Source: a virus
Strand: one strand, 5' to 3'
Virus record (IMG/VR): IMGVR_UViG_3300021141_000706
DNA: 64,000 nucleotides
The notes under the pieces: generated by a model
Databases searched by the model: none
The model's input: the letters and a program-made list of their open reading frames with translations, nothing else
What the model was told of the DNA's origin: nothing
Made by a program: the position numbers and the translations under genes
Part shown: piece after piece, positions 2,559-64,000 of the stretch
Layout: each line of letters opens with the position of its first letter
Numbering within the stretch: the stretch's first letter is position 1

Positions 2559-3241
2559 TAAACATTTATATTAATATAGCAATGGTTGGTTCTGTTAATC
2601 AAGTTCTTTGGGATTTATTGACAAGAATTAAACAAAGTGGATTATATGACTCTGCTAATAAAATATATTTAGTTTTTAATGGTGATAGAAAACAACTATC
2701 ATTTAATTTAGTTAGTGAAAAATATGTTATAATAGACGCTAATCCAGATATATCAAAGTGTGAGTTTCCAACATTAGATTTGATAAGTCAACATTGTAAA
2801 GAAGAAGATTTTAATGTTTTATACTTACATACTAAAGGCGTTACCAAACCAGGCTATCAACAAATAATTGACTGGACTAATTTACTATCTTATTTTAATA
2901 TAAATAAATGGCAAGATAGATTAAAAGATTTAGAAGATAATGATTGTTCTGGTGTTAATTTCTTTGGAAATCCAGATGATATAAATCATCATCCATCAAC
3001 TTGGGGTTACGGCAAAGCTCCTTTACATTATAGTGGTAATTTTTGGTGGTCTAAGTCATCTCATATTAAAAACTTACCTAATATGTCAAATTGGTTACCA
3101 GATGGTAACTATTTGAGATGGAGAGTAATGGCTGAGATGTGGCTTTGTCAAATACCGGATGGTAAATACAGTTGTGCTTGGCAATCAAATATAAATCACT
3201 ACCAACAAAATTATCCTAAAGAATTATATGAATCAAATTAA
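2555..3241 (+). CDS. Putative glycosyltransferase-like protein
   Basis: YLHTKG and HYSGNFWW motifs; sugar-gene context. Confidence 0.5.
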   Translation: MINIYINIAMVGSVNQVLWDLLTRIKQSGLYDSANKIYLVFNGDRKQLSFNLVSEKYVIIDANPDISKCEFPTLDLISQHCKEEDFNVLYLHTKGVTKPGYQQIIDWTNLLSYFNINKWQDRLKDLEDNDCSGVNFFGNPDDINHHPSTWGYGKAPLHYSGNFWWSKSSHIKNLPNMSNWLPDGNYLRWRVMAEMWLCQIPDGKYSCAWQSNINHYQQNYPKELYESN

Positions 3242-3455
3242 AACAGGAGCCGGTGGTGAAATCTATTCAAATCCTGAGGCTGATAAATTAAGTAGTCATT
3301 ATGGTCTCGATGTAGCTGATCAATTATCTGCTATGTTATCTGATGAAATAGCCAAAAGTATAGATAAAGAGATTCTAAAAAGTTTAGGATTAGAACCAGA
3401 TAGAAATAAAAGAAGAAAAAACTCTATTAATAAAATATTTAAAGACGTTGAATAA
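3228..3455 (+). CDS. Mini-protein: gp23 major-capsid-like fragment plus C-terminal tag
   Basis: HYGLDVADQLSAMLSDEIAKSIDKEIL resembles gp23 HGMDADAELSGILATEIMLEINREVV (recalled); ends RKNSINKIF. Confidence 0.75.
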   Translation: MNQIKTGAGGEIYSNPEADKLSSHYGLDVADQLSAMLSDEIAKSIDKEILKSLGLEPDRNKRRKNSINKIFKDVE

Positions 3456-4038
3456 TAGAAGGTAAAGCACCTAATTCAAGTACTTTAGATTTATCCAATA
3501 AGAATTCAATATCGTAAAAGTTAAAGTGAAATGTCATTGTAAATTCTTTAGAGTTAACTTTTTGTTGTGAATAATTAAAAGTATTGTCAGAAAGACCTTT
3601 AAGAATTATTTCATAAAACCTAATTACATAGATAGCATCTCTGTGTATATCAACACAAGTAATTGTAAAAGGATTAACCCAAGCATTATCAACATCTAAG
3701 TAGTGTTTAGTTAAAATATCAAACACTAACCAGTAGTTTAAGTCAGAGTCAACAGATCTAAATGTTACTGTTAAATCATGAGTTGAAGTAATATCTTGAA
3801 CGTTTTTAGCAGGCTTGAATTGTCTTTCTTTACCTCTCATATTAGTTTGTTTAGGCATATCGATTCCAACACCTGGAAAATTAACAGACTTAATAGTTGA
3901 GTTAACATAATCAATTACATTCTCATACTGTACCCAATTCTTTTCGAGAATTGGAGTATAAGTGTTAATAATTTCTTGTTTAATGAAATCACTCGGTAAA
4001 TTAAATATAAACTGACTACCTTGACTACTTAATCTCAT
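3439..4038 (-). CDS. Tail tube/terminator-fold protein (gp3/gp19-like)
   Basis: VNFPG...DLTVTFRSVDSDLNYW...FTMTFHFNFYDI; late operon. Confidence 0.6.
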   Translation of the reverse strand: MRLSSQGSQFIFNLPSDFIKQEIINTYTPILEKNWVQYENVIDYVNSTIKSVNFPGVGIDMPKQTNMRGKERQFKPAKNVQDITSTHDLTVTFRSVDSDLNYWLVFDILTKHYLDVDNAWVNPFTITCVDIHRDAIYVIRFYEIILKGLSDNTFNYSQQKVNSKEFTMTFHFNFYDIEFLLDKSKVLELGALPSIIQRL

Positions 4039-5960
4039 TGACCACCTAAGTTATTTTTTAAATTTATTGCTGCTTTACTAATTGATTGTTGTAACATATT
4101 AGCCTTTGACATACCTGGTTTAGCAACTGGTGCTGATTGTTTAACTGGTCTTCTTGTTACAACAGCTGTTTCTTGTGGTAACTTAGGATCTTTAATAATA
4201 GCAGGATTAGCACTGGAAGCCGCTTCCTGATTAAGACCGGAAACATTAGCAGCACTATCGTATATCTTAAATAATCCAGAGTAAACAACAGATTTAACTG
4301 ATTGTATATCACTAGTTATGTAAAATAAATTAATACCTGACTCATATAGTTTTTTAATATCGACAAATTTATTTTGAGTTATCTTAAATGATAATTGACC
4401 AAGATCTAAATTAACTGAACCAGAATCTGTGTAAAGAGGAAAATCAAAAGTTTTAGAATCATTTCTGAATGTTAATTTAATATCACCATATCCAGTCATA
4501 TTCAAAAAATCTGGTTTAGTATCACTACCATTAGCAATAGTAAATGTGATAATATTGTCAAAAGGATAAATATTGATAATCATTTTTCCAATACCATAAA
4601 ATAAAGTATTATTAAATGAAGCATTATCTGATTTACCAACTATATTAAACTTATCAACTAAAACAGGGAAAGGAACTTTTACAGTTTCAATTTGAATAAT
4701 TGGTGTGTTATTATTATTATTATTAGATCCAGATACTCTACCAGTTACTGCTTTGCTTATAGATATAGGTTTAGTTATTCTACCCATTGAGTTAGACATA
4801 CCAACTAATGATGGATCTATATTAGATTTAATATTATAAATTTTAGGTTTATTAGCATTTGTTAAATTAATCTTAGTTAAGTTTAGAGAGTATTTAGATA
4901 CTTCATCTTGTAACATACCATAAGAAGCTCTTCTAATGATATAAGAGTCATCTACAGCGTCTATTAATCTCATTTCAACATCTATGATAGCGGTTGTAGT
5001 TGAGTACTTAATAATAGGTCTATATTCAATAGTTTCATTAAAGTTATCATGTACAGTAACTGTTGTAGTTTTACCTCTAATGTTTTGTTCATACATTGTA
5101 ATGTTATATTGAACATAGTATCTGTGACCAATATTAAATGATTCATCCATAAACTGATTAAAACCAGCAATAGTATCATTATAAACACCGTATATCTCAA
5201 AGAAGTCACCATTAATTGAGTGAGCTACAACTAGACCTAATCTTTCGAACTCAGGAGTTTGAGGAACTGTTGTTGTTACTTTAGTTGATAAAATATATCC
5301 AGTTAATCCATTAACAGTTTGTATATTATCTATAAAGTGAAAATCAATAAAAACAGGAGATGTTATATTTAATCCCGCTCCATTTGTAAGATTAGCATTA
5401 ATACTATTTTCTTTTGGAACATTGTTAGTCTTTTGACTAGCTAAATCACTTAAAGATGGAATATTAATAGTTATATTCTTACCCCATAGTTTTTCTTGAA
5501 AAAGAAGTGGTGGACTTGTAAAGTTTAATAAATATTGTTGACTGACATCAGTCATGTCAAAGTAAAAGTTTGATATATCAAATATTCTAGTATTTGTAGT
5601 ATCAAATCCATAAACTTTAATAAAAAAACCTAAGTGTTCACCAAATGTCCAGTTTATAGGAACATGAATTTTAATAGTATCATGTCTAGTAGGTGTACCA
5701 GAAGCATACTCTTTTAATTGTAAAAATGAGTAATAAGATGGATTTACTTTAGCATACTTTTGAGTTACTGAATCAACTTTAAATAATTGATTACCCATTG
5801 TATTGCCGGTGATAGATGAAGAACCTGCTATATATGATTGTCTTCTATCTCTAGAGTCAACTAATATATCATAAGATTCACTTATTAAGTTACCATCATC
5901 ATAAATATATTCAAGTAAAACATCTTTGTCTAGTTTTACAAACTTAGAAATTTTTGCCAT
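4035..5960 (-). CDS. Large putative virion structural protein
   Basis: 641 aa, beta-rich; follows late motif at 5984; coupled to tail-fold gene. Confidence 0.45.
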   Translation of the reverse strand: MAKISKFVKLDKDVLLEYIYDDGNLISESYDILVDSRDRRQSYIAGSSSITGNTMGNQLFKVDSVTQKYAKVNPSYYSFLQLKEYASGTPTRHDTIKIHVPINWTFGEHLGFFIKVYGFDTTNTRIFDISNFYFDMTDVSQQYLLNFTSPPLLFQEKLWGKNITINIPSLSDLASQKTNNVPKENSINANLTNGAGLNITSPVFIDFHFIDNIQTVNGLTGYILSTKVTTTVPQTPEFERLGLVVAHSINGDFFEIYGVYNDTIAGFNQFMDESFNIGHRYYVQYNITMYEQNIRGKTTTVTVHDNFNETIEYRPIIKYSTTTAIIDVEMRLIDAVDDSYIIRRASYGMLQDEVSKYSLNLTKINLTNANKPKIYNIKSNIDPSLVGMSNSMGRITKPISISKAVTGRVSGSNNNNNNTPIIQIETVKVPFPVLVDKFNIVGKSDNASFNNTLFYGIGKMIINIYPFDNIITFTIANGSDTKPDFLNMTGYGDIKLTFRNDSKTFDFPLYTDSGSVNLDLGQLSFKITQNKFVDIKKLYESGINLFYITSDIQSVKSVVYSGLFKIYDSAANVSGLNQEAASSANPAIIKDPKLPQETAVVTRRPVKQSAPVAKPGMSKANMLQQSISKAAINLKNNLGGQ

Positions 5961-9334: not shown

Positions 9335-10590
9335 TATAAGTTTAATAATATTTTAAATGAATAATCATTAACATCAGTATCATCATCATACATTCTGTCA
9401 AATCTTGCCATATCAAAAACAACTTCTTCATAATCTAACTCTGGTAAAATACTTAACAAAGCTTCATCTATATCTGATTCTAATTTTTTAAGATTCATTT
9501 TACCTGTTAAATGTGAGTTATCATATCCACCTATGTTTATATTAATAGCTGGTTTATACATATCTAAAACTTTATCAACTGAATAATCTTTTTTCTTTTT
9601 AATATCATAACTGTGAATTGTAACGCTTCTTCTTTCATTGCCTGGAAATTCATCACCGTCTTTGAATCCATAATTATCAATATCAAAATTGACACAATTC
9701 CATTTTTTATCAGTTACATAATACTGTTCGTCACTTCTTCTTAACATTGTATTTGGGTAACTACCAATATTTAAAGTTGGTGAAATAATATCTATTAATA
9801 TATGTTTAACTATTCTTAACTTAGATTCTTCATTTACATTCATAACAGATATTAAACCATTGTATTTATTCTTATTTGGTTTATCATGATTTTCATAATT
9901 GCCATAAGCTATACATAAAACTGAATACTTATCTTTAGCAGATGGAATCTCATCATAAACATCATACATTCTATCATTTACGGTTTCAATATCAACCTTT
10001 GATAGTGAATTAAACATTTTATCAACTAAAGAAGTAATTTTTTGCCAATAACCTTCTCCAATAAAATGTTCTGTATTTAATCTAAGAGATGATTCACTTA
10101 CTTTATTGTTACTACGACCCCATTGAGAAGATTTTATATCTTCAAACCAATCATAGATACCATAATTCATTTGATTAGATTCTTGAATTTTATCAGCTGA
10201 AAAAATAGTTTCTAATTTAGGCATCTCATCATATATTTCAAACTTATCATATCCATATTTTTTATAGTCTTCTGGTATAAGTATTAAATAATTATCATTA
10301 GGATTTTTAGTAAATTGTTTAATAGCAAAATCTATAACTTTATCATGTATCATAGGAGCAATATGAGCTTCAATATTAGAATCAAAATAAACTACTTTAA
10401 CATTCAAGTCTTTTGATTTTGCCCATTTGTAAAACTCATTGGTAAACCAAGCACAATTGGCTTTATTTTTATCAAATGATTCTCCAAATCTAAGACTATA
10501 AACTTTAGACATATCAGTAATAAACTGATTAGCTATAGTTTCTAACTTAAACATCGATTCAAATATTTTATATTTAGTTAAATGTCTCAT
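9334..10590 (-). CDS. Putative head-internal protein with N-terminal Cys-His-Asp (papain/transglutaminase-like) domain
   Basis: MRHLTKYKIFES; NCAWF...HIAP...VIDFAIKQF; internal IQES and VSES. Confidence 0.55.
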   Translation of the reverse strand: MRHLTKYKIFESMFKLETIANQFITDMSKVYSLRFGESFDKNKANCAWFTNEFYKWAKSKDLNVKVVYFDSNIEAHIAPMIHDKVIDFAIKQFTKNPNDNYLILIPEDYKKYGYDKFEIYDEMPKLETIFSADKIQESNQMNYGIYDWFEDIKSSQWGRSNNKVSESSLRLNTEHFIGEGYWQKITSLVDKMFNSLSKVDIETVNDRMYDVYDEIPSAKDKYSVLCIAYGNYENHDKPNKNKYNGLISVMNVNEESKLRIVKHILIDIISPTLNIGSYPNTMLRRSDEQYYVTDKKWNCVNFDIDNYGFKDGDEFPGNERRSVTIHSYDIKKKKDYSVDKVLDMYKPAININIGGYDNSHLTGKMNLKKLESDIDEALLSILPELDYEEVVFDMARFDRMYDDDTDVNDYSFKILLNL

Positions 10591-11438
10591 TCTAAGTTAA
10601 GTTCTTTTAATATTTCTGTTACTTTATCAAGTCTTATCATTATTGACTCATCTTCAAACCAAGATTCAAGAGCTTCTGATTCATTTGTATCAAGTTGAGA
10701 ATACATATTCATTACACCTACTATATCTGTTAGTTTGAAGTTATTATTTTTTGGATCTAATAATATATTTAAGTTTTCTAATAGGTTTAGACTATCATCC
10801 CATAAAACTTCATAATCAGTTGTAAAGTATTTACTTATTATGTGTTCAGATGCTTCTGAGCCTTCTAAAAACGATTTTAGTTCGTTCCAATTTGTATTTA
10901 ATGATGGTTTAACATTTCTGTCTAGTTCATTAACAAGTAATGTCATATAATAAGCAATTGATGGTCTATCCAAATCTTCCTCTATAAAATCTTCATCTTT
11001 TGGTAAATTTGAAAAACAATTCCAAAAATCACTTCTATCACCAGTGGCTACCATAGTATCATCAAAAGGAATAATAACATAATCAACTGATGGTCCTTTG
11101 ATAAATCCACCACCATGTGACAATGCTCTATATGAAGAAGCACATATTAATGATTTGTTTCTTCTGGGCCAGTCTTTCCAAGATTCTAAATTAGAGATTA
11201 ATAGATTGTGATAGTTTTTAAAAGCATAAGGGGCAATTCTATCTTGTGATGAAATCTTTGGATTAACTAATAAAAAGTCACCACGATTTTCATCTTTTCT
11301 ATAAATTAAACAACCTTCAGTATAGTCTTTTCCCCAATTAAGAAATTTCTTACATTTTGTCATAAGTATCTCAATTACTTCGTCTTTTGTCAACGTAGTA
11401 GTATTTAGACTTTCATTTATGCTCTTTAAATGTTTCAT
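10587..11438 (-). CDS. Putative head-internal protein, possible ADP-ribosyltransferase-like fold
   Basis: MKHLKSINES; IYR...RNKSLICASS...YVIIP...ESWFE. Confidence 0.45.
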   Translation of the reverse strand: MKHLKSINESLNTTTLTKDEVIEILMTKCKKFLNWGKDYTEGCLIYRKDENRGDFLLVNPKISSQDRIAPYAFKNYHNLLISNLESWKDWPRRNKSLICASSYRALSHGGGFIKGPSVDYVIIPFDDTMVATGDRSDFWNCFSNLPKDEDFIEEDLDRPSIAYYMTLLVNELDRNVKPSLNTNWNELKSFLEGSEASEHIISKYFTTDYEVLWDDSLNLLENLNILLDPKNNNFKLTDIVGVMNMYSQLDTNESEALESWFEDESIMIRLDKVTEILKELNLE

Positions 11439-13585: not shown

Positions 13586-13617
13586 AAAAAACCCACTCAT
13601 TTGAGTGGGTTTTTTTT
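13586..13617. terminator. Bidirectional intrinsic terminator
   Basis: AAAAAACCCACTCA-TT-TGAGTGGGTTTTTT between convergent genes. Confidence 0.85.
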
Positions 13618-17592: not shown

Positions 17593-17593
17593 A

Positions 17594-18632: not shown

Positions 18633-19031
18633 ATGAAACTGTATTATAATGGCAGAGGGTATCCTGTACAGTGGAAATCCTTGATGAGAAAAGATATGTG
18701 GTATAATATGGAACCTGTGAAAATAAAATTCACACTTCCAGAATCTTTATATAAAGCAATTCTCATAGATATTAAATTAAATAAAGATGAGCATCGAGAT
18801 ATCTTTTCATTTAATCTACTCTTAAATAAAGATGAAATGTCTAGAGATCGTGATAAACTTGTTGTAGAAACAAATGAGTATTGGAAGATTGATGCTTGTG
18901 TAGATAGAGTTTCAATTACTTCTCGATTTAGAAATGGTGATGTGGTTGCTATATTTGAAGTTTCAATATTTGAAGAAGAAGAATTAGACAAATCTGAATT
19001 AAGAGAAATATTATTAAATGAACTTGTTTAA
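18633..19031 (+). CDS. Hypothetical early protein with C-terminal tag
   Basis: Start revised to 18633; ends ELREILLNELV. Confidence 0.6.
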   Translation: MKLYYNGRGYPVQWKSLMRKDMWYNMEPVKIKFTLPESLYKAILIDIKLNKDEHRDIFSFNLLLNKDEMSRDRDKLVVETNEYWKIDACVDRVSITSRFRNGDVVAIFEVSIFEEEELDKSELREILLNELV

Positions 19032-22487: not shown

Positions 22488-23545
22488 TAAACTGTAAAGT
22501 TTTTAGATGATTTTAACTTTTCAAGGGTATATTTTTCATCAAGTTCAATCTTCTTAGGAATCTTAATTGATATCTTTATATAAAGGTCACCTAAGCCATA
22601 TTGAATATCTGGAATACCTTTACCACTCATTCTGATAACTTTACCATGTTCAGTTCCTGGTTCAATTGTTACAGATATTTCACCGTGTGGTGTTTTAACT
22701 TTTACATTTGATCCAATAATAGCATCAATGACTGAAATGGTTTTCTCAACAATAATATTGTTATTTTCTCTTTTGAAAGAGTAATCATTCAATTCCTCAA
22801 TAACAATATGTAAATCTCCTGGTTGACCATTTCTAACATGATTACCAAATCCTGGCATTGATAATTGCATGCCATTAGATACACCTGCTGGGATATCAAC
22901 ATCAACAGTTTGTTCTTTAAAAACTGTACCATCACCTTTACAGTCTTTACATTTATTATGGACTTGTTGACCACTACCACCACAATCTGGACAAGAGGTA
23001 GCTTGTCTTATTTGACCAAATGGTGTGTTTTGAACAACTGTTCTTTGACCTGAGCCATTACAAGGAATACAATTTCTAACATCTGTACCACCTTTACCAT
23101 CACAAGTTCCACACTTATCTTGTCTTTTATATTTTAATTTCTTAGAGACACCTTTAAGAATTTCATCAATTGTTAAACTAACTTTAATTCTCAAATTAGA
23201 GCCTCTACTTTGTGGTTTTTGTCCACCACCATACCTTTGGTTAAAAGAGTTGCCAAAGATATCTCCAAAATTACTGAATATATCTTCCATATTAAATCCG
23301 CCACCACCAAATGGATTTCCACCGCCACCATTTGCCGATCCAAATCTATCATAGTTAGATTTTTTATCTGGTGTTGATAAAACATCATAAGCTTCAGCCG
23401 CTTCTTTGAATTTAGACTCTGCTTCTGGATTATCAGGATTTTTGTCTGGATGAAACTTCATTGCCATCTTACGATAAGCTTTTTTAATTTCATCTTCTGA
23501 AGCGTTTCTATCAACGCCTAATACATTGTAATAATCTTTACTCAT
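22487..23545 (-). CDS. dnaJ: Chaperone DnaJ
   Basis: J domain HPD, G/F region, four CxxCxGxG repeats. Confidence 0.97.
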
Positions 23546-23856
23546 GTTAATATTTGTCTTATTTTTGATTCTCTATATATTTGTATGGGTGTTTCGGTCA
23601 GTTTTATAGTTACCCATCTGTTATAATTTATTATAAACTCACTATTATAAACTTTGGCTGTCATAATTGGAAGTTCTTCGATTATTTCTTTGAAGATAGT
23701 ATTAGCATCTTCTAATTTCCAATCTTTCATATCAGTTAGTCTATTACAGAAATAATCCATACAAGGTGAAGCAGTGTCTATAACATTTCCTAAATACTTA
23801 TCGCCTTTGAATCCCTCTGGAGCCGAGTCTGATATTTCAACATACCAATCCGTCAT
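23542..23856 (-). CDS. Hypothetical protein with C-terminal tag
   Basis: Ends [11 protein letters not shown]. Confidence 0.6.
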
Positions 23857-24440
23857 AACAAATCATCTTTATTTTCTTCAAAGATTTGATTTATAGTTTC
23901 TTCTCTTTTATATTGTTTTAACATACCTTCAATTGCTTGTTCGTGATCTTCAATGTCTAGAACTTTTTGAACTAAACTAGCAACATAATTATCAACAATT
24001 AGAGTTAATGTTTCGGCAGTTCTATCGATATGTTCAAAATGTTGAAGACAATCTTTTGATTTAATAAACATATCAATTAGATAATCAATAAATTCATCAG
24101 CATTGAAGAACATAGTAAATAGTTTATATCTATGTCCATTATTATATCCTGTTTCTTTGAAAAGTGTTGGTGGGTCAATAAAGACCTTACCAAATACTCT
24201 TCTAATTGCCGGTAGTACTAAATCTAAAGTTTCATCTTCTTCGAGATATAAAGCTCCTTTGAATTCCTCTCTATCAAATAAATAATATTTTTCATCAACA
24301 ACATATTCTAATAAAGACTTAAACGAATGAAGATGTTGACTAGATATTCCTTGACATAAAGCGTCAATGATAGCTTTTTTATATTGTTCATCTTTATAAA
24401 GATCTAAGAAGCTTTTTTTATTCTCTACTTTATTTGACAT
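23853..24440 (-). CDS. Hypothetical protein with C-terminal tag and possible capsid-like LPAIRRVF motif
   Basis: LVLPAIRRVFGK; KREETINQIF. Confidence 0.55.
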   Translation of the reverse strand: MSNKVENKKSFLDLYKDEQYKKAIIDALCQGISSQHLHSFKSLLEYVVDEKYYLFDREEFKGALYLEEDETLDLVLPAIRRVFGKVFIDPPTLFKETGYNNGHRYKLFTMFFNADEFIDYLIDMFIKSKDCLQHFEHIDRTAETLTLIVDNYVASLVQKVLDIEDHEQAIEGMLKQYKREETINQIFEENKDDLL

Positions 24441-24889: not shown

Positions 24890-24893
24890 AGTA

Positions 24894-30493: not shown

Positions 30494-31083
30494 TATATCT
30501 CATTAAATCTTTTTATCTTGAATATTGAACTGATATTATTAAGTTTCATTTTAATCTGATTAGCAAGTAAACCTTGAATACGGTTGAATCTTCTATTCTT
30601 TTCTAATTCGTCCATAATTTGAACAGTTTCTTGAAAGTATTTATTTCTAAATCTTTCAGAGGCTGTAAAAGCATCAGATATATTTTGTAATCTATCACAA
30701 AGTTTAATGAATAAGGCTTCATTAGACATATGAATCATTTTAACAATAAGATAATCGGCTTTGCTATCATAATCATCTTCAATCTCTTCTTTAGAGGAAG
30801 TTAGTTCTTGTACGATATCAGCAATCTTTTTACCAAACTTTCCTTCAATAATATGATAACCTACATCTGGATCATCAAAGCAGTCCTCTATCGTATCGTG
30901 AAGTAAAGCAGCACAAAGAATATCTTCATCTGTTGTGTATTGCTTAGCAATTCCATTAACCTTTTGAACATGAGCCGTAAAGTAAGGCTTATTGATAAAC
31001 TTTCTAACTTGACCCTTGTGTAATTCCTTTGCGAAATCCCAAGCTTCTTTTTCTTTTGGAGTTAATGGTCTATTTCTTATCAT
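30493..31083 (-). CDS. HD-domain (p)ppGpp-hydrolase-like protein (SpoT/Mesh1 family)
   Basis: HKGQVRK..PYFTAH, AALLHDTIED, IKLCDRLQN. Confidence 0.85.
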   Translation of the reverse strand: MIRNRPLTPKEKEAWDFAKELHKGQVRKFINKPYFTAHVQKVNGIAKQYTTDEDILCAALLHDTIEDCFDDPDVGYHIIEGKFGKKIADIVQELTSSKEEIEDDYDSKADYLIVKMIHMSNEALFIKLCDRLQNISDAFTASERFRNKYFQETVQIMDELEKNRRFNRIQGLLANQIKMKLNNISSIFKIKRFNEI

Positions 31084-31088
31084 ATTTG

Positions 31089-31097
31089 TATATATTA
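31089..31097 (-). promoter_or_regulatory. Candidate late promoter TAATATATA
   Basis: 5 nt before ATG 31083. Confidence 0.6.
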
Positions 31098-31136
31098 AAT
31101 TATTTCCTTAAATTTGTGTTACTAAAAACTAAAACT

Positions 31137-31556
31137 ATGATCGACGAGGCTAAAATTAAGAAAATACAAGATAGAATAAAAGCGGCAATTCTAAAAATTG
31201 AAGCAGAAGAAAATGTAAAGATTGATTTTGGAACTATTAGTTATAATAAAGCTTTTTACACTTCTAAAATGAGTGTTAAGACTTTAGAAAAGACTGAAGC
31301 CATTGGTGATGTTTATAAAGCAATCTGTCGAAGACTTGGTTTTACCCAAAACATTATAGGTATGAGATTTCATGGCACTAACGGTATCTATGAAATCGTA
31401 GATATCAAAACAAAAAACAGAACTTATCCAATTATTGCTAAGTCATTAACTGGTGCTAAAATGTACAAGTATTCAGTTAACCAAATAAAATCTTTGATTG
31501 GTGGTGATAAGATTATTAATCGAAATGCCAACTTAGATAAACTTATTGGTGAATAA
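31137..31556 (+). CDS. Hypothetical early protein with C-terminal tag
   Basis: Start revised to 31137; TAAATTTG at 31109; ends NRNANLDKLIGE. Confidence 0.6.
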   Translation: MIDEAKIKKIQDRIKAAILKIEAEENVKIDFGTISYNKAFYTSKMSVKTLEKTEAIGDVYKAICRRLGFTQNIIGMRFHGTNGIYEIVDIKTKNRTYPIIAKSLTGAKMYKYSVNQIKSLIGGDKIINRNANLDKLIGE

Positions 31557-39494: not shown

Positions 39495-40421
39495 ATGATG
39501 AAGAATATCGGATATTGTTGTATTCCAATGGGATGTAACGAAGGTAAACCTAAAAAAGAACATATAACAGTTAATAGAGGTATGGTTCGTAGAACTTTTG
39601 ATGCTAAAGGCTTGCCTTATGCTTCCGAGTTAATTATTGAGAATCTAAAAGATACTCTCAAAGTTCTAGACTATAATCTTAAAAATCATATCTATATCTA
39701 TCGTTTGAGTTCAGACTCATTTCCATGGATGTCTGAATATGAATTCTCTGACTTACCAAATTTCAAATTGATTCAAATTCTTATGGCTCAAATTGGTGAG
39801 AAGATTAAATCAAATAAAATTCGTGTGAGCTATCACCCAGGTCCTTTCAACGTTTTGGCAAGTGAGAATCCATCAGTTGTTGAGAAAACAATTAAAGAGT
39901 TAAATAAACACGCTGAATTAATGGATTTAATGAACTTAGACAAGACTACGTTCTATCCGATAAACATTCATATCAATACAACTAAACCTACCAGAGAAGA
40001 AGCCGCAGTGCGTTTCTGTGAGCAGTTTGAGAACCTAAGTGAATCTTGTAAGTTAAGATTAGTTGTTGAGAATGATGATGGTCAAAATCAATACTCTGTA
40101 AAGATGTTACACGACTGGGTTCATACTAAGATTGGTATTCCAATTACTTTTGACCAACATCACTTTAACTATGGTCCACAAGACCAATCAATGGAAGAAG
40201 CATTGAGATTAGCTCACTCTACTTGGAAAACAAGAGCCTTAACTCATATGAGTTCACCAAAAACATTAGAAGATACATCAGGAAAACAAACAGCACATGC
40301 CGATTATATTTATGAAGAAATTAAAACATTTGGTCTTGACTTTGATACAGAAATCGAAGCGAAAGCAAAAGACCTCGCAGTTATTAGATATAGAAATCAG
40401 TTTAAAGTTCTCAAAGGGTGA
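39495..40421 (+). CDS. uvsE: UV damage endonuclease
   Basis: IGYCC, YRLSS, HPGPFNVL, ENDD, FDQHH, AHADY, EAKAKD. Confidence 0.93.
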   Translation: MMKNIGYCCIPMGCNEGKPKKEHITVNRGMVRRTFDAKGLPYASELIIENLKDTLKVLDYNLKNHIYIYRLSSDSFPWMSEYEFSDLPNFKLIQILMAQIGEKIKSNKIRVSYHPGPFNVLASENPSVVEKTIKELNKHAELMDLMNLDKTTFYPINIHINTTKPTREEAAVRFCEQFENLSESCKLRLVVENDDGQNQYSVKMLHDWVHTKIGIPITFDQHHFNYGPQDQSMEEALRLAHSTWKTRALTHMSSPKTLEDTSGKQTAHADYIYEEIKTFGLDFDTEIEAKAKDLAVIRYRNQFKVLKG

Positions 40422-40653
40422 TCGTGTTGTTATTGTGACACGAGCTTATGAGGATCTTAAATATCGAGTAGGTTCGGTGGTTGCTGCTAAAGATACACTG
40501 GAATTTAACTCATATAGAGTTGAACTAGATTTATATCCAAGTGGATATCAATTAAAACAACATTTAATACCTATTATTTTTGCTGAAGAAGAACTTCAGT
40601 TTGAAGATACATCTAAAGAAAGAGATTGGAAGTTAAAACAAGTTCTAAAATGA
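40297..40653 (+). CDS. SH3/KOW-like protein with C-terminal tag (start uncertain)
   Basis: KFSKGDRVVI...YRVELD...FAEEEL; ends KERDWKLKQVLK. Confidence 0.5.
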   Translation: MPIIFMKKLKHLVLTLIQKSKRKQKTSQLLDIEISLKFSKGDRVVIVTRAYEDLKYRVGSVVAAKDTLEFNSYRVELDLYPSGYQLKQHLIPIIFAEEELQFEDTSKERDWKLKQVLK

Positions 40654-40964
40654 TAAAAAAAATACTTTCTATATTCAAAAATAAAGAAGAAGAAATTTAT
40701 GGTTTTGTTAAATATAACAGAGGTGATGAAGTCAAAGTAACTATTTACTCTGAGGTGCCAGAATTTTGGTATATTGGTAAAGTATTAGATATTAATGCTC
40801 GTTATGTTCTGCCAGATATTAAACAAAGTTGGAAAGTAGAATATTATGTTTCATTTAAGAATAGTAAAGGAAGTGAACTAAGATACTGGTTCTTAGAATC
40901 AGAATTAAGAAAGTACTCTTTACAAGAAGAAAGAAATTCAAGAATAGACCAATTGTTAAATTAA
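40650..40964 (+). CDS. SH3/KOW-like protein with C-terminal tag
   Basis: KYNRGDEVKV...YYVSF...WFLESEL; ends EERNSRIDQLLN. Confidence 0.6.
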   Translation: MIKKILSIFKNKEEEIYGFVKYNRGDEVKVTIYSEVPEFWYIGKVLDINARYVLPDIKQSWKVEYYVSFKNSKGSELRYWFLESELRKYSLQEERNSRIDQLLN

Positions 40965-42254: not shown

Positions 42255-42755
42255 TTACTTTAATATTTCTTCTAATTTATTATCTCTTTCTTCGTACTTC
42301 TCTGTTATATCAGCATATCTTAATCTATATGATGTGCTTAGATTTACTAGATCTACATATTTTATAATTGAAAAGAGCACAAATGTTTTCCATCTTCTCT
42401 TTTCAAAAAAATCATTAACTAAATCTTCGGATTCAAATTCTTTTGTTTCAGCATTATATTGTTTTGAAACTATTTTATTATCAACTACTTTCATTATATG
42501 AAATGATGGCATCGAAGTAACATAAGAAATTTTAGTCCAATGTTTATCTAAAAATTGACCTAACCATAATGATGGATCAACTGTAGCCATTCTAACATTA
42601 CTATTATCACTACCCATTCTAAAGCAGTTATCAATTAGTATTTTAATACCTTCAAGATTATTCTCACCAATAGGATAAACTGATATACTTTTTGGATCCG
42701 TATTCGTTAGTTGAGTCGGTCCATTTAAATTTTTTATAAAGTCTTTGAATATCAT
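42255..42755 (-). CDS. Hypothetical protein with C-terminal tag
   Basis: Ends EERDNKLEEILK. Confidence 0.6.
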   Translation of the reverse strand: MIFKDFIKNLNGPTQLTNTDPKSISVYPIGENNLEGIKILIDNCFRMGSDNSNVRMATVDPSLWLGQFLDKHWTKISYVTSMPSFHIMKVVDNKIVSKQYNAETKEFESEDLVNDFFEKRRWKTFVLFSIIKYVDLVNLSTSYRLRYADITEKYEERDNKLEEILK

Positions 42756-43435: not shown

Positions 43436-43841
43436 ATTTAACAATCTCAATTTTAGCCTCTCTTAAAAAATCTAAGCCAGAGGTGTCTTTATAGTCTTCA
43501 ATGTAGACTAATCGTTTTATTCCAGATTGTAGTATAAGTTTAGAACAATCTCTACAAGGAGAATGTGTTTGATATAAAGTACTACCCTCACAAGAATGAC
43601 CATGTTTAGCACACTTTAGAATAGCATTAGCTTCACCGTGAATAACATACCAATTAGTATCACCATCACCATTCTCACAAGAGTTATCAAAGCCTGTTGG
43701 TGTTCCATTATAACCATCAGATATAATCATTCCGTTCTTAACTATTAGGGCACCTACTTGTTTTCTACTACAATGTGAAAGTTTAGCCCACTCTGTAGCC
43801 ATATTCAAATAAGTTCTATCGTATCTTTCTTCCTTAGTCAT
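43419..43841 (-). CDS. dCMP deaminase
   Basis: SHCSRKQVGA, GYNGTP, HGEANAI, SPCRDC. Confidence 0.95.
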   Translation of the reverse strand: MTKEERYDRTYLNMATEWAKLSHCSRKQVGALIVKNGMIISDGYNGTPTGFDNSCENGDGDTNWYVIHGEANAILKCAKHGHSCEGSTLYQTHSPCRDCSKLILQSGIKRLVYIEDYKDTSGLDFLREAKIEIVKYGQGT

Positions 43842-43983
43842 TTTTAAATAGTTTATTTATTTTATATTTTCTAACCTCGTTTCTTTCCAGACCTAACATT
43901 TTAATTATCCAATCTATTGAAAAGTATGGAGTATTATATGATTTAATCATATCAGACATTATTTTCATTCTATCCTTATTCAT
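43834..43983 (-). CDS. Mini-protein (49 aa): portal (gp20)-like fragment plus tag; not in ORF track
   Basis: MNKDRMKIMSDMIKSYNTPYFSIDWIIKMLGLERNEVRKYKINKLFKND; 8-nt overlaps at both ends. Confidence 0.6.
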   Translation of the reverse strand: MNKDRMKIMSDMIKSYNTPYFSIDWIIKMLGLERNEVRKYKINKLFKND

Positions 43984-44128
43984 TGAATAATTTATTAATT
44001 TTTTTCTTTCTTATAAGTTTTCTAACACTATCTTTATATACCTTATTAAAGGCTTCTTTTGGATATATTCTACCATTGTGTTTATCATAGGCTTTTTGTA
44101 TAACACCTTCTAGAATATACTTACTCAT
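43976..44128 (-). CDS. Mini-protein (50 aa): prohead protease (gp21)-like fragment plus tag
   Basis: MSKYILEGVIQKAYDKHNGRIYPKEAFNKVYKDSVRKLIRKKKINKLFNE; start revised to 44128. Confidence 0.72.
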   Translation of the reverse strand: MSKYILEGVIQKAYDKHNGRIYPKEAFNKVYKDSVRKLIRKKKINKLFNE

Positions 44129-44294
44129 CTGGAAATAACTTTTTAATTTTTTCTTTTCTACTACCTCTTTTAAAATCATTTATAACATCAGCAACAGCAG
44201 GTGAAACAACCATATAATTAGCACTACCTTTAGTAGATGCTTTATGAATCATTTCAGATGCCTTTAATAATTTATTAATTAGTTCTTTACTCAT
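44121..44294 (-). CDS. Mini-protein (57 aa): major capsid (gp23)-like fragment plus tag; not in ORF track
   Basis: MSKELINKLLKASEMIHKASTKGSANYMVVSPAVADVINDFKRGSRKEKIKKLFPDE. Confidence 0.75.
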   Translation of the reverse strand: MSKELINKLLKASEMIHKASTKGSANYMVVSPAVADVINDFKRGSRKEKIKKLFPDE

Positions 44295-47067: not shown

Positions 47068-47490
47068 CTATTTAAGAATCTCTTTTATTTTTCTATCTCT
47101 TTCTAAAATTTTGAATTTAATTTCTAAATATTCTTCTATCTCTGAAGGTAAGTTAAGGTTATTCTTTTTTAACTCATCGTAAAAAGGTTTACCTAAAACA
47201 TTTAATGTTGAAATAGCAACAGCAAGATGTGGATCACCATAACCATCAACTTCAATATCTTCATCTAAAACATGATAAGTTGTTTTATTAATTGAGTAGT
47301 TCATAGTGCTACCGCCCCAAGTAAGATATTGACCAGATGATAATGTAGATGTTGTGATTGAAGAATTTGTACCAGATATGTTGATAACTCCAGAATTACC
47401 TACTGAGCTTGATATAGAAGGTGTTCCAAATACTGGAGCACCTATTGCGCTTGTGTGAACTGTTTGTCCGGCTATGTTTACGAATCCCAT
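47068..47490 (-). CDS. Hypothetical protein with S/T/G-rich N-terminus and C-terminal tag
   Basis: Ends LERDRKIKEILK. Confidence 0.6.
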   Translation of the reverse strand: MGFVNIAGQTVHTSAIGAPVFGTPSISSSVGNSGVINISGTNSSITTSTLSSGQYLTWGGSTMNYSINKTTYHVLDEDIEVDGYGDPHLAVAISTLNVLGKPFYDELKKNNLNLPSEIEEYLEIKFKILERDRKIKEILK

Positions 47491-47495: not shown

Positions 47496-47520
47496 TTATA
47501 TAAACATCATATAGAAAGTT
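47496..47520 (-). promoter_or_regulatory. Candidate middle promoter AACTT-N15-TATAA
   Basis: 5 nt before ATG 47490. Confidence 0.5.
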
Positions 47521-48065
47521 TAGATAATCTTACTAATTTGAATATGGCGATAAAGACTTTGAAACTCTTCTCTTATTTCTTCTTTGTATTCATATGAATA
47601 ATTATTTGAAAAATAATCATATTCTTTTCTCTCTACTTTCTTACTAATTGATTCATAATTGGCTTTAACTTTATCAAAGCAGTTTTCTTTATCAGTCCAC
47701 TTAACCATATTGTTAATTAAGTCAAAGTCAATCTTTTTGAATCCGTCAAAAAACTCAACTTGAGCATGTGAGTATAGATAGTGTCTAATAACTTTATCAT
47801 AATAATCTTCTTCTAAAACTCCTTTAGGATTTGATAACTCTGTTGTTGTAAAGTAAAACTCAACACCTATGTTTATTAAATGTTTAACTAATTTTACTAT
47901 TGCGTTTGAAACTCTATTGTCTAAAAAAACATAAACTATATCATCCTCAACAAAACAAACCGGTATATGTTCATATTTTTTGAACATAACAAATTTACCT
48001 TTAACAACCCAAGTAGGATTGACTAAAGGTCTAAATTTATCTGGTATTAAGTTATTTAAGTCCAT
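47520..48065 (-). CDS. Hypothetical protein with degenerate C-terminal tag
   Basis: Ends LYRHIQISKII. Confidence 0.6.
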   Translation of the reverse strand: MDLNNLIPDKFRPLVNPTWVVKGKFVMFKKYEHIPVCFVEDDIVYVFLDNRVSNAIVKLVKHLINIGVEFYFTTTELSNPKGVLEEDYYDKVIRHYLYSHAQVEFFDGFKKIDFDLINNMVKWTDKENCFDKVKANYESISKKVERKEYDYFSNNYSYEYKEEIREEFQSLYRHIQISKII

Positions 48066-54140: not shown

Positions 54141-54494
54141 ATGAATCAAAGATCAATTAATCTTTCACCCTGGAAAGAAATTTCTATATCAACTGAAGTA
54201 CAACATCATACTTTAATTGATATAGCAACCATTATCATAAGTGATGATGAAGACTATTATATAATTGAGGATGATATTGAAAAAGTAATGGATGTTAGTC
54301 AAATGCCTCATTATATAAAAGAAGATTGGATTAACTACAATAAGAAAGAACTTAACCAAAAAGTTATAGATAAACACATCGCAGTTTATACCGATAAGTC
54401 TGAAATGATATATCCACCTGACAGAGAAGTTGAAGAAATAATTTCTACACTAAAATCAATAAAAAGACATTTAATTATTAAAAAGATAATTTAA
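54141..54494 (+). CDS. Hypothetical protein with degenerate C-terminal tag
   Basis: Ends IKRHLIIKKII. Confidence 0.55.
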   Translation: MNQRSINLSPWKEISISTEVQHHTLIDIATIIISDDEDYYIIEDDIEKVMDVSQMPHYIKEDWINYNKKELNQKVIDKHIAVYTDKSEMIYPPDREVEEIISTLKSIKRHLIIKKII

Positions 54495-59178: not shown

Positions 59179-59754
59179 ATGAAATTTCTTAAAAAATTTG
59201 AAGCCAAATCAGAAGACTCTAAAGAAAAGTTAATAGAGTATGCTGATGATATTGTAAAAGTTATAACAACTTATTACTCAACTCATACTGGTGATTTATG
59301 TGATCAAATTGATGAAATACTTTGGAATACCTCAAATGTTGATTTAGATGGTTGGGAGAATGATGGTGTGCTAACTGAAGAGATGATGAGAGAAGTAGTT
59401 GAGGATTATAAAGGTGCTTGGTCCAGAGAAATAGAAAAATTACTTGATGTATATTATGATTGTAGACATTTTGTTAAACATGTAAATAAAGACTTAGTTG
59501 AAGATATAAAAGAAGTATTTTTAGAATATTCTGATATGGGTAAGGTTGAAGTTAGTAAAACGTCTAGGTTAAATGATGATAGATATTCTGTAAAAATTTA
59601 TATTAAAGATATATTATTTAAAATTAACTTTGAAGAAGTATTAGATAGAATAAAAGAATTAGGTTTTGAACATTATTCCATAGAGTGTGTCAAAAATGGT
59701 TATATAGAAAGTATGACTATTGAATTTTGGAAGCCATTACCAGAAGAAGAATAA
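59179..59754 (+). CDS. Putative head-internal protein
   Basis: MKFLKKFEA. Confidence 0.6.
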   Translation: MKFLKKFEAKSEDSKEKLIEYADDIVKVITTYYSTHTGDLCDQIDEILWNTSNVDLDGWENDGVLTEEMMREVVEDYKGAWSREIEKLLDVYYDCRHFVKHVNKDLVEDIKEVFLEYSDMGKVEVSKTSRLNDDRYSVKIYIKDILFKINFEEVLDRIKELGFEHYSIECVKNGYIESMTIEFWKPLPEEE

Positions 59755-60828: not shown

Positions 60829-61293
60829 ATGGTGTCTTTGAATAAAGAATATAATCAAATTGTGAACCTTACTAAATTCAATGTGAATTTTAGTAAGTTT
60901 ATTCATAATAATGACTTATTGAGTCATAGTCCAGACTATATTCTTGAAAAATATAATCATTGGATTGGATTTGAACCAACTATTGAGTGTAAATTATATA
61001 CACCAGATGATATGACTGATTTTTTTCTTAAATATTGGAAAAGATGGGGTATATTTGAAGAATATTCTGTGAAAAATATTTTGATGTATCTTTACTCAAC
61101 TAGAAGTATGAATCTAGTATTAATGTCTGAGAAGTTTGAAGAGTATATCGGGCCAATGAATATGATATCAGATATACCAGATAAAAAAGGATTACATCAT
61201 AAATCAGATTTATTTATTAATGATGTATTAGAAAAGAATAAAGACAATGTAAAAGTTGTTTTAAGAGATATGAAAATTGGAAGTATAATATAA
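60829..61293 (+). CDS. Hypothetical early protein with C-terminal tag
   Basis: Ends VLRDMKIGSII. Confidence 0.6.
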   Translation: MVSLNKEYNQIVNLTKFNVNFSKFIHNNDLLSHSPDYILEKYNHWIGFEPTIECKLYTPDDMTDFFLKYWKRWGIFEEYSVKNILMYLYSTRSMNLVLMSEKFEEYIGPMNMISDIPDKKGLHHKSDLFINDVLEKNKDNVKVVLRDMKIGSII

Positions 61294-62036: not shown

Positions 62037-62249
62037 ATGAATATAAGAAAGGGAGATAAGCTTTTATGTACCGAAGATGTGAATAACGTCTTCGGTTGGC
62101 CCTTATTTGAAAAAGGTAAGCAATATGAAGTTCTTTATGTAGATAATGAAAAGGTAAAAACTTATGTCTATATGAACCATAATCTATATGGTAATGAATA
62201 TATGGAACACGAATTACAATGGGTATTAAAAAGATTTAAGAAACAATGA
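62037..62249 (+). CDS. Small SH3-like hypothetical protein
   Basis: IRKGDKLLC..FEKGKQYEV. Confidence 0.55.
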   Translation: MNIRKGDKLLCTEDVNNVFGWPLFEKGKQYEVLYVDNEKVKTYVYMNHNLYGNEYMEHELQWVLKRFKKQ

Positions 62250-62698
62250 TAAACGATAAAGTGATAATGATTGTAGAAAATCTGATACAATCAACTAAAA
62301 ACGCAGAGTTAGAATGGATTGATAAAGGTTCTGTTGATAAAAGAAGTTATCATCGTGAGTATTATGCTATTGCTGAAGATGGTACAAAATACGAGGCAGA
62401 AGTTAAGTACACATTAAGTAATAGTGGTACTTGGGTATTAGAATCTGCTCCTTCTATCTGGGTTAGAAGTGAGAAACTTCCAAATGGTGTTTTCTATATC
62501 TATGGTGGTCAATCCGAATTGAAAGAAATTATTTCCGAATTTAGAAAAGTAATTATGGATAAGTATTGTCAAGATATGAAGCCATCTGAAAAAGTGGTTG
62601 AAGATGCTTTAGATGGTATTGCTAAAGGTATTAGTATATCAACTTATCGTGATAATAAACTAAATAAGATTCTTGGTGTCTTTGGATTAGGTAAATAA
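62246..62698 (+). CDS. Hypothetical protein with C-terminal tag
   Basis: YRDNKLNKILG. Confidence 0.6.
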   Translation: MINDKVIMIVENLIQSTKNAELEWIDKGSVDKRSYHREYYAIAEDGTKYEAEVKYTLSNSGTWVLESAPSIWVRSEKLPNGVFYIYGGQSELKEIISEFRKVIMDKYCQDMKPSEKVVEDALDGIAKGISISTYRDNKLNKILGVFGLGK

Positions 62699-62726: not shown

Positions 62727-62731
62727 CGTCT

Positions 62732-63544
62732 ATGGAAATTAATGATATTCATCAAGGTGATTCTTTGGAGTTACTAAAAAAACTACCAGACAACTCTGTT
62801 GACTTGGTAATAACATCACCACCTTACGCTGACTTAAAAGTTTATATAGACAATGGTGGAATCTTAGCCAAAGATTATGTCAATTGGTTTATACCTTATT
62901 GTAAGGAAATAGAAAGAGTTCTTAAACCAACAGGGTCTTTCATCTTAAACATCAATGATAAAGTAGAGAATGGTTTTAGACATCCTTATGTCTTTGACTT
63001 AATATCAGAACTACATAAACAAACAGGTCTAAAAATGTTTGAGAGATTGTTCTGGAATAAATTAAAAAGTCTTCCTAACAGAGCCAGATTTGGTGATAGA
63101 GTAGAATACTTATTTTGGTTCGCTAAAGAAAAAGGATTCAAGTTTAATCTTGATGAAATGAGAACTGAGTATTCTGAGAAGTCTATTAAAAGAATGACTA
63201 AACCTCTAAAGAAAAGATTTGCCAGAACTGAAGGTGATGATAATTTAGAGTATAAAGATTGGGCTCCAAATCCAAAAGGTGCTTTACCGACTACATTAGT
63301 AAACATCTCATCTGAATCAAAACGAATTGCTGATAATCACGTTGCTGTTTTTCCAGTTGATCTTATTGAATACTTTATCAAAGGTGCTACTGATAAAGGT
63401 GATTTAGTTTTAGATATATTTATGGGAACTGGTACAACTGCTGTTGCCGCTAAGAAGTTAGGTAGAAATTGGATGGGATTTGAACTACAACAAGATTATA
63501 TAGATGTTGCGAATATTAGAATAGGTGATGTTGAGAATAACTAA
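62732..63544 (+). CDS. DNA N4-cytosine/N6-adenine methyltransferase (beta class)
   Basis: TSPPY, H.AVFP, VLDIFMGTGTT. Confidence 0.92.
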   Translation: MEINDIHQGDSLELLKKLPDNSVDLVITSPPYADLKVYIDNGGILAKDYVNWFIPYCKEIERVLKPTGSFILNINDKVENGFRHPYVFDLISELHKQTGLKMFERLFWNKLKSLPNRARFGDRVEYLFWFAKEKGFKFNLDEMRTEYSEKSIKRMTKPLKKRFARTEGDDNLEYKDWAPNPKGALPTTLVNISSESKRIADNHVAVFPVDLIEYFIKGATDKGDLVLDIFMGTGTTAVAAKKLGRNWMGFELQQDYIDVANIRIGDVENN

Positions 63545-63548
63545 AAAT

Positions 63549-63797
63549 ATGGGTAAGATAATTTCTATGAAGAGAGGTGACTTTCCCATAGATAGTTTTG
63601 TTATTATGCCTGGTGTTACCCATTATAAAAACATATACACAAATGGAAATTATTTATTCTTTAGTCAAGAAGACTATAAACAATCCATAACTATTGAATT
63701 TACTAATGAAGGTGAGTTAGATAGATTTTTTACTATGTTAATGAGAGAGATAAAATTAAATCAGCTAATAAATGTTGAGACGAAAAATACTAAATAG
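63549..63797 (+). CDS. Hypothetical protein with C-terminal tag
   Basis: LMREIKLNQLIN. Confidence 0.55.
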   Translation: MGKIISMKRGDFPIDSFVIMPGVTHYKNIYTNGNYLFFSQEDYKQSITIEFTNEGELDRFFTMLMREIKLNQLINVETKNTK

Positions 63798-64000
63798 AAT
63801 AGGTGTTGTGTTTGGTATATTAGCATTCTTAATGATGTTTGTTATACCATTCTTTATCAAGTCTAATGATAAAATGTATGCTGGTATTTACTTTTGTTTC
63901 TTTCTAACTTGTACTTGTGTGGCTAATGTAACATTAGAAAAATCAAATAAACCACCATCTCTTGAAGAAAGAGAAGAAAAAATTAGACAAATTATTAAGT
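63772..64000 (+). CDS. Two-TM membrane protein with C-terminal tag (runs off window; not in ORF track)
   Basis: MLRRKILNRIGVVFGILAFLMMFVIPFF...YAGIYFCFFLTCTCVA...EEREEKIRQIIK. Confidence 0.6.
   Translation, partial: MLRRKILNRIGVVFGILAFLMMFVIPFFIKSNDKMYAGIYFCFFLTCTCVANVTLEKSNKPPSLEEREEKIRQIIK

Follow-up and report, generated by a model that had tools for sequence, protein, structure and literature searches.

A shared C-terminal helical tag on unrelated small proteins of huge phages as a candidate docking label

Why do about one fifth of the genes in a stretch of DNA from a giant freshwater phage encode otherwise unrelated proteins that end in the same short peptide? This question is raised by a window of 64,000 nucleotides (the whole stretch of DNA that was analysed) from the IMG/VR virus record IMGVR_UViG_3300021141_000706. 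An initial annotation had noticed that about 18 proteins encoded there share a helical tag close to their C-terminus, which in its short form reads R-x-x-K-I/L-x-x-I/L-L/I/F. We analysed this tag in the window, in related phage genomes and in control sequences. The results give good support to the inference that the tag, which is proteome-wide and specific to certain clades, serves a single partner as a docking or address label.

According to the original definition, the motif is an arginine followed by hydrophobic residues at positions +4, +7 and +8; here, an open reading frame (ORF) was counted as tagged if the end of this motif was located 0-8 residues before the stop codon. All 18 peptides quoted in the initial annotation were found in the translation exactly as written; the positions listed with them are ORF boundaries rather than motif coordinates. 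In the window, 19 of the 90 ORFs carried the motif at most 8 residues from their end, whereas 0.43 were expected from the internal rate of 10 matches in 18,639 positions of the same proteins (Poisson P ~7e-25). Shuffling of the last 25 residues of each protein yielded on average 0.69 matches and never more than 4 in 2000 trials, and the N-termini of the ORFs contained two. The pattern was defined post hoc, and the same regular expression then held on independent genomes. An unbiased enrichment analysis of 3-mers in the last 16 residues returned parts of the tag among tag-positive genomes as the strongest signals and nothing comparable in the control phages LR756508 or Lak-A1. The motif is far commoner at C-termini than within proteins and is not explained by a composition rich in K, I and N, which settles two doubts that had been raised together with the initial annotation. 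An anchored alignment of the window tags gave R-[DEK]-x-K-[IL]-[NK]-[KQE]-[IL]-[LIF], with one or two polar residues before the stop codon in most cases; the tail behind the motif is variable and comprises 0-8 residues.

Among public records, two uncultured megaphages are closest to the window, LR745206 with 635 kb and LR756502 with 642 kb; they were recovered from a subsurface sample in Japan and a lake in France (PMC9723777). LR745206 was analysed over its full genome, and 147 of its 975 ORFs were tagged according to the stricter pattern, compared to 5.8 expected and to 9.1 on average and at most 17 after shuffling of the tails. The first pattern missed a variant ending with L-G-I directly before the stop codon (e.g., RDKKLNELGI), which was present in 32 further LR745206 proteins and raised the share of tagged ORFs to 179 of 975 (18%), with 6 expected. 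The tag was also found in 20 of 111 ORFs in 50 kb of LR756502 and in 152 of 1409 ORFs of IMG/VR contigs that encode a DnaK with an identity of 74% or more to that of the window. LR756504 carried it on 102 of 951 ORFs, often ending right at the stop codon, and in LR756501 (735 kb) a third form of the tag occurred on 22 ORFs. Each lineage has its own consensus, which is R-D-x-K-I-N-K-I-L for the lineage of LR745206, R-K-x-K/I-I-E/K-D/N/E-L-L for LR756504, and K-N-x-K-R-T-K-L-I/M-D-K-M-L-N-E for LR756501. Position +1 is D or E in 94 of 148 LR745206 tags (64%), and the tags of LR756504 are acidic at +5/+6.

The control sequences were at background level, with 5 of 759 tagged ORFs in LR756508, 5 of 639 in the Prevotella phage Lak-A1 (GC content 26%), none of 89 in the first 50 kb of T4, and none of 444 in 417 kb of Bacteroidota chromosomal DNA. 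A sister clade, represented by IMG/VR contigs with a DnaK 66-69% identical to that of the window, had one tagged ORF in 562. The tag is restricted to certain clades and is neither a compositional nor a host feature. The sister-clade contigs are 40-126 kb long and were rated 14-42% complete. This rating corresponds to genomes of about 300 kb, whereas those of the tag-positive phages are larger (385-735 kb). Searches of the open-access literature on C-terminal motifs of huge phages and on M16 peptidases in jumbo phages retrieved no description of the tag. As a separate observation, about 42 proteins of LR756501 end with a second, unrelated motif, DPYGEE[DEN]W[DNES], which has 67 internal sites in this genome and is absent from the other genomes examined.

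The codons for Arg, Ile, Leu, and Lys vary among the window tags, and the DNA beyond the stop codon is not conserved. In LR745206, codon usage at the tag positions equals that of the genome; Arg, for example, is encoded by AGA in 74% of the tags and in 76% of cases genome-wide. Because tag codons follow genome usage and the downstream DNA is not conserved, selection acts on the peptide and not on the DNA, and a DNA-level cause of the tag was rejected. Translational coupling or stalling by the nascent peptide was rejected because the spacing to the stop codon is variable, and paralogy because the bodies of the tagged proteins do not cluster.

The pre-tag parts of the 147 tagged LR745206 proteins formed 146 BLAST clusters, so that the N-terminal parts are indeed as unrelated as first described. 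These proteins have a median length of 105 residues, and only 5 of 144 matched Pfam families, four in number, one of which was Gp23, matched weakly by two proteins. For 144 length-matched untagged LR745206 proteins, 45 families were obtained. The near absence of domains bears out the earlier statement that no recognisable enzyme carries the tag. A homologue in LR745206 was detectable for only 10 of the 19 tagged proteins of the window, and none was found in the more distant lineages. Similarly, 6% of the tagged LR745206 proteins had a homologue in LR756504 and 2% in LR756501, compared to 14% of the untagged small proteins in either case. The tagged proteins are small and fast-evolving.

Where orthologues were found, they keep the tag at about 40% identity while the body drifts. 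In the family of ORF 42255-42755, the tag was present in 20 of 20 members at a median identity of 42%, and R157, K160, and I164 are among the few (nearly) invariant residues. None of the related-contig homologues of the untagged window proteins examined was tagged. The family of ORF 31065-31556 includes some natural members without the tag, which end just before the GGDK linker. AlphaFold2 models of these two families placed the tag in a terminal helix with a confidence below that of the core. For ORF 42255-42755 (predicted local distance difference test score, pLDDT, 83) this helix comprises residues 153-165, and no fold relative of the model was found in the PDB; for ORF 31065-31556 the terminal helix had a pLDDT of 54-60. 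Since the bodies are unrelated, orthologues retain the tag, natural tag-less members end at the linker and the models show a terminal helix, the tag behaves as a detachable module. The genes concerned are tightly packed, with a gap of at most 5 nt to the next gene for 72% of the tagged and about 50% of the untagged genes.

Some small proteins of these phages resemble pieces of 40-190 residues of the approximately 560-residue gp23-like capsid protein with 25-40% identity. They are encoded at 3228-3455 and 44121-44294 in the window, at 207176-207907 and 255010-255237 in LR745206, and at 415901-416098 and 472629-473165 in LR756504. Some of them are tagged, and untagged ones occur in all three lineages. 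Capsid-fragment baits as a speciality of the tagged proteins were rejected, because untagged small proteins resemble gp23 pieces too.

Many other proteins of this phage carry an N-terminal leader, MK[YH]LKxF/Y..(F)ES, which resembles the capsid-targeting sequence (CTS) and cleavage site of T4 (PMC3012670). In the window it is found on the ORFs at 8615-9334, 9334-10590, 11439-12755, 12752-13186, 13616-13900, 13903-14334, 16831-17592, 28431-29618, 29623-30072, 30074-30493, 32023-33360 (an RnlA-like RNA ligase), 38872-39456, and 59179-59754. In LR745206, which has 147 tagged and 81 leader-bearing proteins, a single protein had both elements (Fisher 3e-5); the head-targeting motif is thus practically missing from tagged proteins, in line with what had been noted for the window. 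The two classes also differ in their promoters. Two promoter-like motifs dominate the intergenic regions, TAnnTTTG, the form of Bacteroidota housekeeping promoters, and TAATATATA. Each operon of LR745206 was walked upstream to the first of these motifs. Tagged genes were headed by TAnnTTTG in 66 cases and by TAATATATA in 15, leader genes in 3 and 61 cases, respectively (61 of 64 classifiable ones with TAATATATA), and all other genes in 181 and 253 cases. When only the upstream gap of the gene itself was considered, the ratio was 20 to 1 for tagged genes and 1 to 27 for leader genes. The promoters of tagged genes are therefore of the host (early) type, which supports the initial annotation, where the visible promoters had been described as early or middle. 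Furthermore, tagged genes of the window share operons with RNase H, topoisomerase, and chaperone genes. This pattern suggests an early timing of the tagged genes. The host-type promoters and the exclusion of the head leader argue that the tag would be a second, non-virion address.

Because in each of three lineages a separate consensus is imposed on unrelated proteins that number from dozens to hundreds, one shared and co-evolving partner is indicated, and the tag probably has one common reader. The notion of one docking piece and a single hub, which was part of the initial annotation, fits with a consensus that shifts together on all tagged proteins; the clamp, Clp, and DnaK, which had been named as possible hubs, do not fit, as described below. 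In the mechanism we propose, the motif is a C-terminal short linear motif selected at the protein level, an amphipathic helix of 9-13 residues with the code K-x-x-h-R-[DE]-x-K-[IL]-x-x-[IL]-[LIF] or L-G-I and an invariant Arg in the middle of its hydrophobic face. A loose linker would join it to early-expressed, fast-evolving accessory proteins that lack recognisable domains. The common reader, most likely phage-encoded, would co-evolve with the tag and handle the whole class of proteins. As our best guess, it would process the tagged early proteins proteolytically or remove them at a set time. Taken as a whole, a docking label for a common, co-evolving reader combined with such processing or removal is the best explanation we can offer, and it is offered tentatively; that the reader processes or turns over the tagged proteins is itself a possibility that we favour with reserve.

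Genes were searched for that could encode such a reader by subtraction of gene contents, in which LR745206 genes with homologues in LR756504 and LR756501 were retained and those with matches in LR756508, Lak-A1 or the sister clade were removed. This left 57 genes, 20 of which were run against Pfam. These 20 included an M16B peptidase, a DUF2201 metallopeptidase/VWA protein together with a MoxR-like ATPase, and an M42 aminopeptidase, besides bS21, a tRNA synthetase, a protein with an RF-1 domain, and others. The M16B peptidase has an intact HxxEH motif; 8 of 8 tag-positive genomes encode it, and both complete tag-negative ones (LR756508 and Lak-A1) lack it. Each of the four near-complete IMG/VR genomes from the lineage of the window has M16 and DUF2201, M16 was also found in LR756502, and both were absent from every tag-negative record examined, including the sister-clade fragments. 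Contigs fetched via the M16 gene had 48 of 623 ORFs tagged, compared to 5.6 expected. The nearest solved relatives of the phage M16 protein are a bacterial 'processing protease' (3hdi) and the beta subunit of the mitochondrial processing peptidase. Complex prediction for the M16 dimer and the last 39 residues of ORF 42255-42755 gave scores of 0.62, 0.01, and 0.01, which weigh neither for nor against binding. On the basis of this co-distribution, the M16B peptidase and the pair of MoxR and VWA-metallopeptidase may be regarded as candidate readers, that is, as leads. The M42 aminopeptidase was rejected, because two tag-positive genomes lack it or have it with a score that does not reach the Pfam cut-off.

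The hubs suggested initially fared less well. The phages encode a ClpC-like double-ring ATPase with a VGF ClpP-docking loop, one to three ClpP genes, and ClpS (ClpC-like ATPase and Clp genes of LR745206 at 423224-425329 and 123556-124221). The N-terminal domain of the ClpC-like protein is absent in two lineages and complete in the third, and this region differs in all three tag-positive lineages. The phage Clp system was rejected as reader because its distribution does not follow the tag. DnaK was rejected as a specific reader, since phage Hsp70 is found in tag-positive and tag-negative clades alike; moreover, the 25 clade-discriminating positions of phage DnaK do not include the substrate-pocket residues that were checked. 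The arrangement grpE-tag-tag-dnaJ is confined to one lineage. The polymerases of LR745206, LR756504, and LR756501 have C-termini that differ from the tag of their own genome, with tails such as ...VVMDIFGGFK and ...KLTFTLSLF. Because the DNA polymerases carry these different tails, the clamp site is not the site of the reader, and the clamp is an unlikely candidate.

Several points weigh against the account given above. About 55 other genes share the phyletic pattern of M16 and DUF2201, and the independent lineages are few. The tag-negative sister clade is known from fragments only. ClpP is absent from the tag-positive genomes G001 and LR756501, and the ClpC-like ATPase is present in a tag-negative clade. 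M16 enzymes are known for cleaving N-terminal presequences and free peptides, not for acting on C-terminal tags of folded proteins. Finally, the early timing of the tagged genes is deduced from promoter-like motifs only.

Other explanations share part of this evidence. In the adaptor model of the initial annotation, each variable body would capture a target from the host or from a competing phage, and the helix would bring this protein to one hub, such as a protease, an unfoldase or a chaperone, in the manner of SspB or F-box proteins. Diverse, fast-evolving bodies without enzyme domains are what would be expected for binders in an arms race, and an apparently early expression, judged from the promoter type, tagged mini-proteins that resemble pieces of the gp23-like capsid protein and might serve as bait, and the phage-encoded ClpC-like protein, ClpP, ClpS, M16 peptidase, and MoxR/VWA pair would all suit it. 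However, capsid-protein fragments are also common among untagged small proteins, a set of 100-180 or so distinct adaptors that serve one hub would have no precedent in bacteria, and the evidence fits a simple turnover of the tagged proteins themselves equally well. We consider the adaptor model unlikely. Its phage-encoded form would be a system of targeted proteolysis or processing, in which 100-180 rapidly evolving small binders, including capsid decoy pieces, seize targets of host defence or takeover or of rival phages and the helix hands them to one phage peptidase or AAA+ machine. This is quite unlikely in our opinion; if true, bacterial viruses would have in it a counterpart to the F-box/PRANC adaptor families that giant viruses of eukaryotes possess.

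The tag might alternatively be a localisation signal that directs proteins to the membrane, like the MinD or FtsA helix, to a phage compartment or replication factory, or to a second site in the virion off the route of the N-terminal leader. A terminal amphipathic helix with basic residues would be suitable for this, the logic would be that of the cargo-loading peptides of encapsulins and the encapsulation peptides of microcompartments, and that tag and head leader exclude each other suggests the existence of two addresses. With three to four hydrophobic positions and conserved acidic residues at +1 or, in LR756504, at +5/+6, the helix would be poorly suited for lipid binding, and the lineage-specific consensus points to a protein partner. 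In addition, the tag occurs on proteins that already possess membrane-like segments, and tagged genes avoid late-type transcription units. We consider a role in localisation unlikely as well.

A tag without any reader, that is, a self-contained structural element for oligomerisation, stabilisation as a cap or protection from C-terminal proteolysis that was reused in new small genes, would agree with its presence on orphan and possibly young genes and with the predicted helix. Such a role is hard to reconcile with the evidence because the consensus is lineage-specific, and an invariant central Arg and a concerted shift of the consensus would not be expected for a generic cap. The same helix on about 180 proteins would lead to promiscuous hetero-association, and some families thrive without it, which makes this explanation very doubtful. 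Last, despite the tight packing of tagged genes and the A/T-rich codons of the tag, an origin of the motif as a by-product of nucleotide-level signals or AT-rich composition (overlapping gene starts, promoters, recombination cassettes) is hardly credible, given that synonymous codons vary as in the genome, that the flanking DNA is not conserved, that equally AT-rich relatives and the Lak phage lack the motif, and that shuffled tails gave about 9 matches instead of 147.

The 19 tagged ORFs of the window lie between positions 3228 and 64000. On the plus strand, the 75-residue ORF 3228..3455 (RKNSINKIF at 3414-3440, tail KDVE) has a tagged orthologue in LR745206 and a weak match to a Gp23 fragment (E 2e-4, below the Pfam cut-off), and the 132-residue ORF 18633..19031, whose tag REILLNELV (19002-19028) ends at the stop codon, likewise has a tagged LR745206 orthologue. 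The 163-residue ORF 31065..31556 carries RNANLDKLI (31521-31547) behind the GGDK linker; its annotated first ATG adds 24 hydrophobic residues absent from all homologues, and translation probably begins at the Met in position 25 (MIDEAK...). An ORF of 118 residues (40297..40653, RDWKLKQVL at 40621-40647) overlaps the end of uvdE and is followed by one of 104 residues (40650..40964, RNSRIDQLL at 40932-40958). A 117-residue ORF (54141..54494, RHLIIKKII at 54465-54491) is located behind a topoisomerase gene, and the 154-residue ORF 60829..61293 (RDMKIGSII at 61264-61290) has its own TAnnTTTG box 12 nt upstream. Close to the end of the window are a 150-residue ORF (62246..62698, RDNKLNKIL at 62648-62674, tail GVFGLGK), an 89-residue ORF (63528..63797, REIKLNQLI at 63744-63770, 8-residue tail), and an ORF with hydrophobic, membrane-like segments (63772..64000, REEKIRQII at 63970-63996), which runs off the window, so that its stop codon lies beyond and the distance of the tag to the C-terminus is not visible there.

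On the minus strand, two tagged orphan genes are located between grpE and dnaJ, an arrangement of this lineage only. The 104-residue product of 23542..23856 (RESKIRQIL at 23548-23574) was tagged in 11 of 11 related-contig homologues, and the 195-residue product of 23853..24440, which adjoins grpE (REETINQIF at 23880-23906, 8-residue tail), showed the pattern in 10 of 29 homologues. ORF 42255..42755 has 166 residues (RDNKLEEIL at 42261-42287), and three mini-ORFs are also tagged, 43834..43983 (49 residues, RKYKINKLF at 43846-43872), 43976..44179 (67 residues or shorter, RKKKINKLF at 43985-44011), and 44121..44294 (57 residues, RKEKIKKLF at 44133-44159), the last with a weak match to a Gp23 fragment (E 2.5e-4). 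ORF 47068..47490 (140 residues, RDRKIKEIL at 47074-47100) lies upstream of an RNase H-like gene, and ORF 47520..48065 (181 residues) has a tag, RHIQISKII at 47523-47549, that ends at the stop codon and was found in 8 of 8 homologues. The nineteenth case, added here, is ORF 10587..11438 (283 residues) with the weak tag RLDKVTEIL (10608-10634); it is the only one in the window that also has an N-terminal leader (MKHLKSINES) and is a doubtful member.

The window has a GC content of 29% and is 94% coding with the standard code. Its replication and repair proteins are T4-like and include a gp32-like protein (7474-8442), two topoisomerase II subunits (48405-50249 and 52783-54126), an RNase H-like 5'-3' exonuclease (46038-47012), and the RnlA-like ligase (32023-33360); UvdE and the ribonucleotide reductase small subunit are encoded as well. 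The chaperone region (22487-25379 and 33762-35648) comprises DnaJ (22487-23545), GrpE (24440-24889), and a complete DnaK (33762-35648), the most conserved gene of the region with 87% identity to LR745206. Cytophagales and Saprospira have the nearest cellular DnaJ sequences, which makes a freshwater bacterium of the phylum Bacteroidota the probable host. The sorting domain of type IX secretion was found on window proteins. The large ORF 55407-57617 has a hydrophobic, signal-peptide-like N-terminus, repeats of the SprB and PKD types, and a CHU_C sorting domain for type IX secretion, and the large ORF 26125-28305 has a similar N-terminus and a GEVED domain; both look like phage proteins exported via the type IX system of the host.

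Most genes of huge phages are small orphans without a known function, and a label on 10-20% of them sorts these into one jointly handled class. The tag also offers an experimental handle, with a peptide for pull-down experiments and a single Arg to be mutated, and its lineage variants are a natural experiment in the proteome-wide co-evolution of a motif and its receptor. Together with the T4-like leader it suggests a sorting with two addresses, by which late cargo would enter the head and early accessory proteins another destination. Identification of the reader could reveal a new mechanism of phage proteostasis or takeover.

Known systems resemble the tag in part. The comparison with viral F-box/PRANC adaptors, drawn in the initial annotation, is an analogy of logic only; none of 144 tagged proteins gave a Pfam match to an F-box or PRANC domain. 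Such adaptors have an F-box-like domain of 40-50 residues that binds Skp1 of a cullin ligase, in contrast to a tag of 9-13 residues, and to our knowledge the probable hosts, Bacteroidota, have no SCF ligases. For a membrane helix of the MinD or FtsA type, basic and hydrophobic residues without conserved acidic ones would be expected; the tags have D/E at +1 in 94 of 148 cases, acidic +5/+6 positions in LR756504, and 3-4 hydrophobic positions. T4 gp43, gp33, and gp55 dock on the gp45 clamp by C-terminal tails, and T7 gp2.5 and gp4 have acidic tails. Docking tails of the clamp type are similar to the tag in that one short peptide on unrelated proteins serves one hub, and the h-x-x-h-h spacing is alike; they are found on few known enzymes, however, and the tag on 100-180 proteins without recognisable domains. 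Signals for AAA+ proteases, such as the C-terminal ClpX-binding peptide of SspB and the C-terminal signals of MuA and ssrA type, are also short, C-terminal and partly basic or hydrophobic peptides that lead to one proteolytic machine. The tag differs from them by the lack of sequence likeness, by its location 0-8 residues from the C-terminus, and by phage Clp genes that do not co-occur with it.

Mitochondrial and chloroplast presequences are read by M16 processing peptidases and serve as N-terminal import signals. They share with the tag an amphipathic helix, a key Arg and the presence on many unrelated proteins, and the phage M16B peptidase with its intact HxxEH motif is co-distributed with the tag; the difference is their N-terminal position and function in import. 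The peptides of encapsulin and microcompartment cargo likewise consist of a terminal amphipathic helix and a linker on unrelated cargo and are read by one shell protein, whereas this phage is not known to have such a shell and the tag is found on early-type genes and numbers in the hundreds. The CTS of the T4 internal proteins and Alt (PMC3012670) is, like the tag, a short constant peptide that serves as an address on unrelated, fast-evolving accessory proteins, and this phage has its own CTS-like leader, MKYLKxF(N)ES. The T4 CTS is N-terminal, comprises about 10 residues, ends with a site for the prohead protease, (L/I/F)-x-E, and marks late proteins for packaging; the tag is located 0-8 residues from the C-terminus, is encoded by early-type genes and occurs on only one of 81 leader proteins. 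In the proposed mechanism, the tag would be the counterpart of the T4-like N-terminal leader, which would send a different, late set of proteins into the head.

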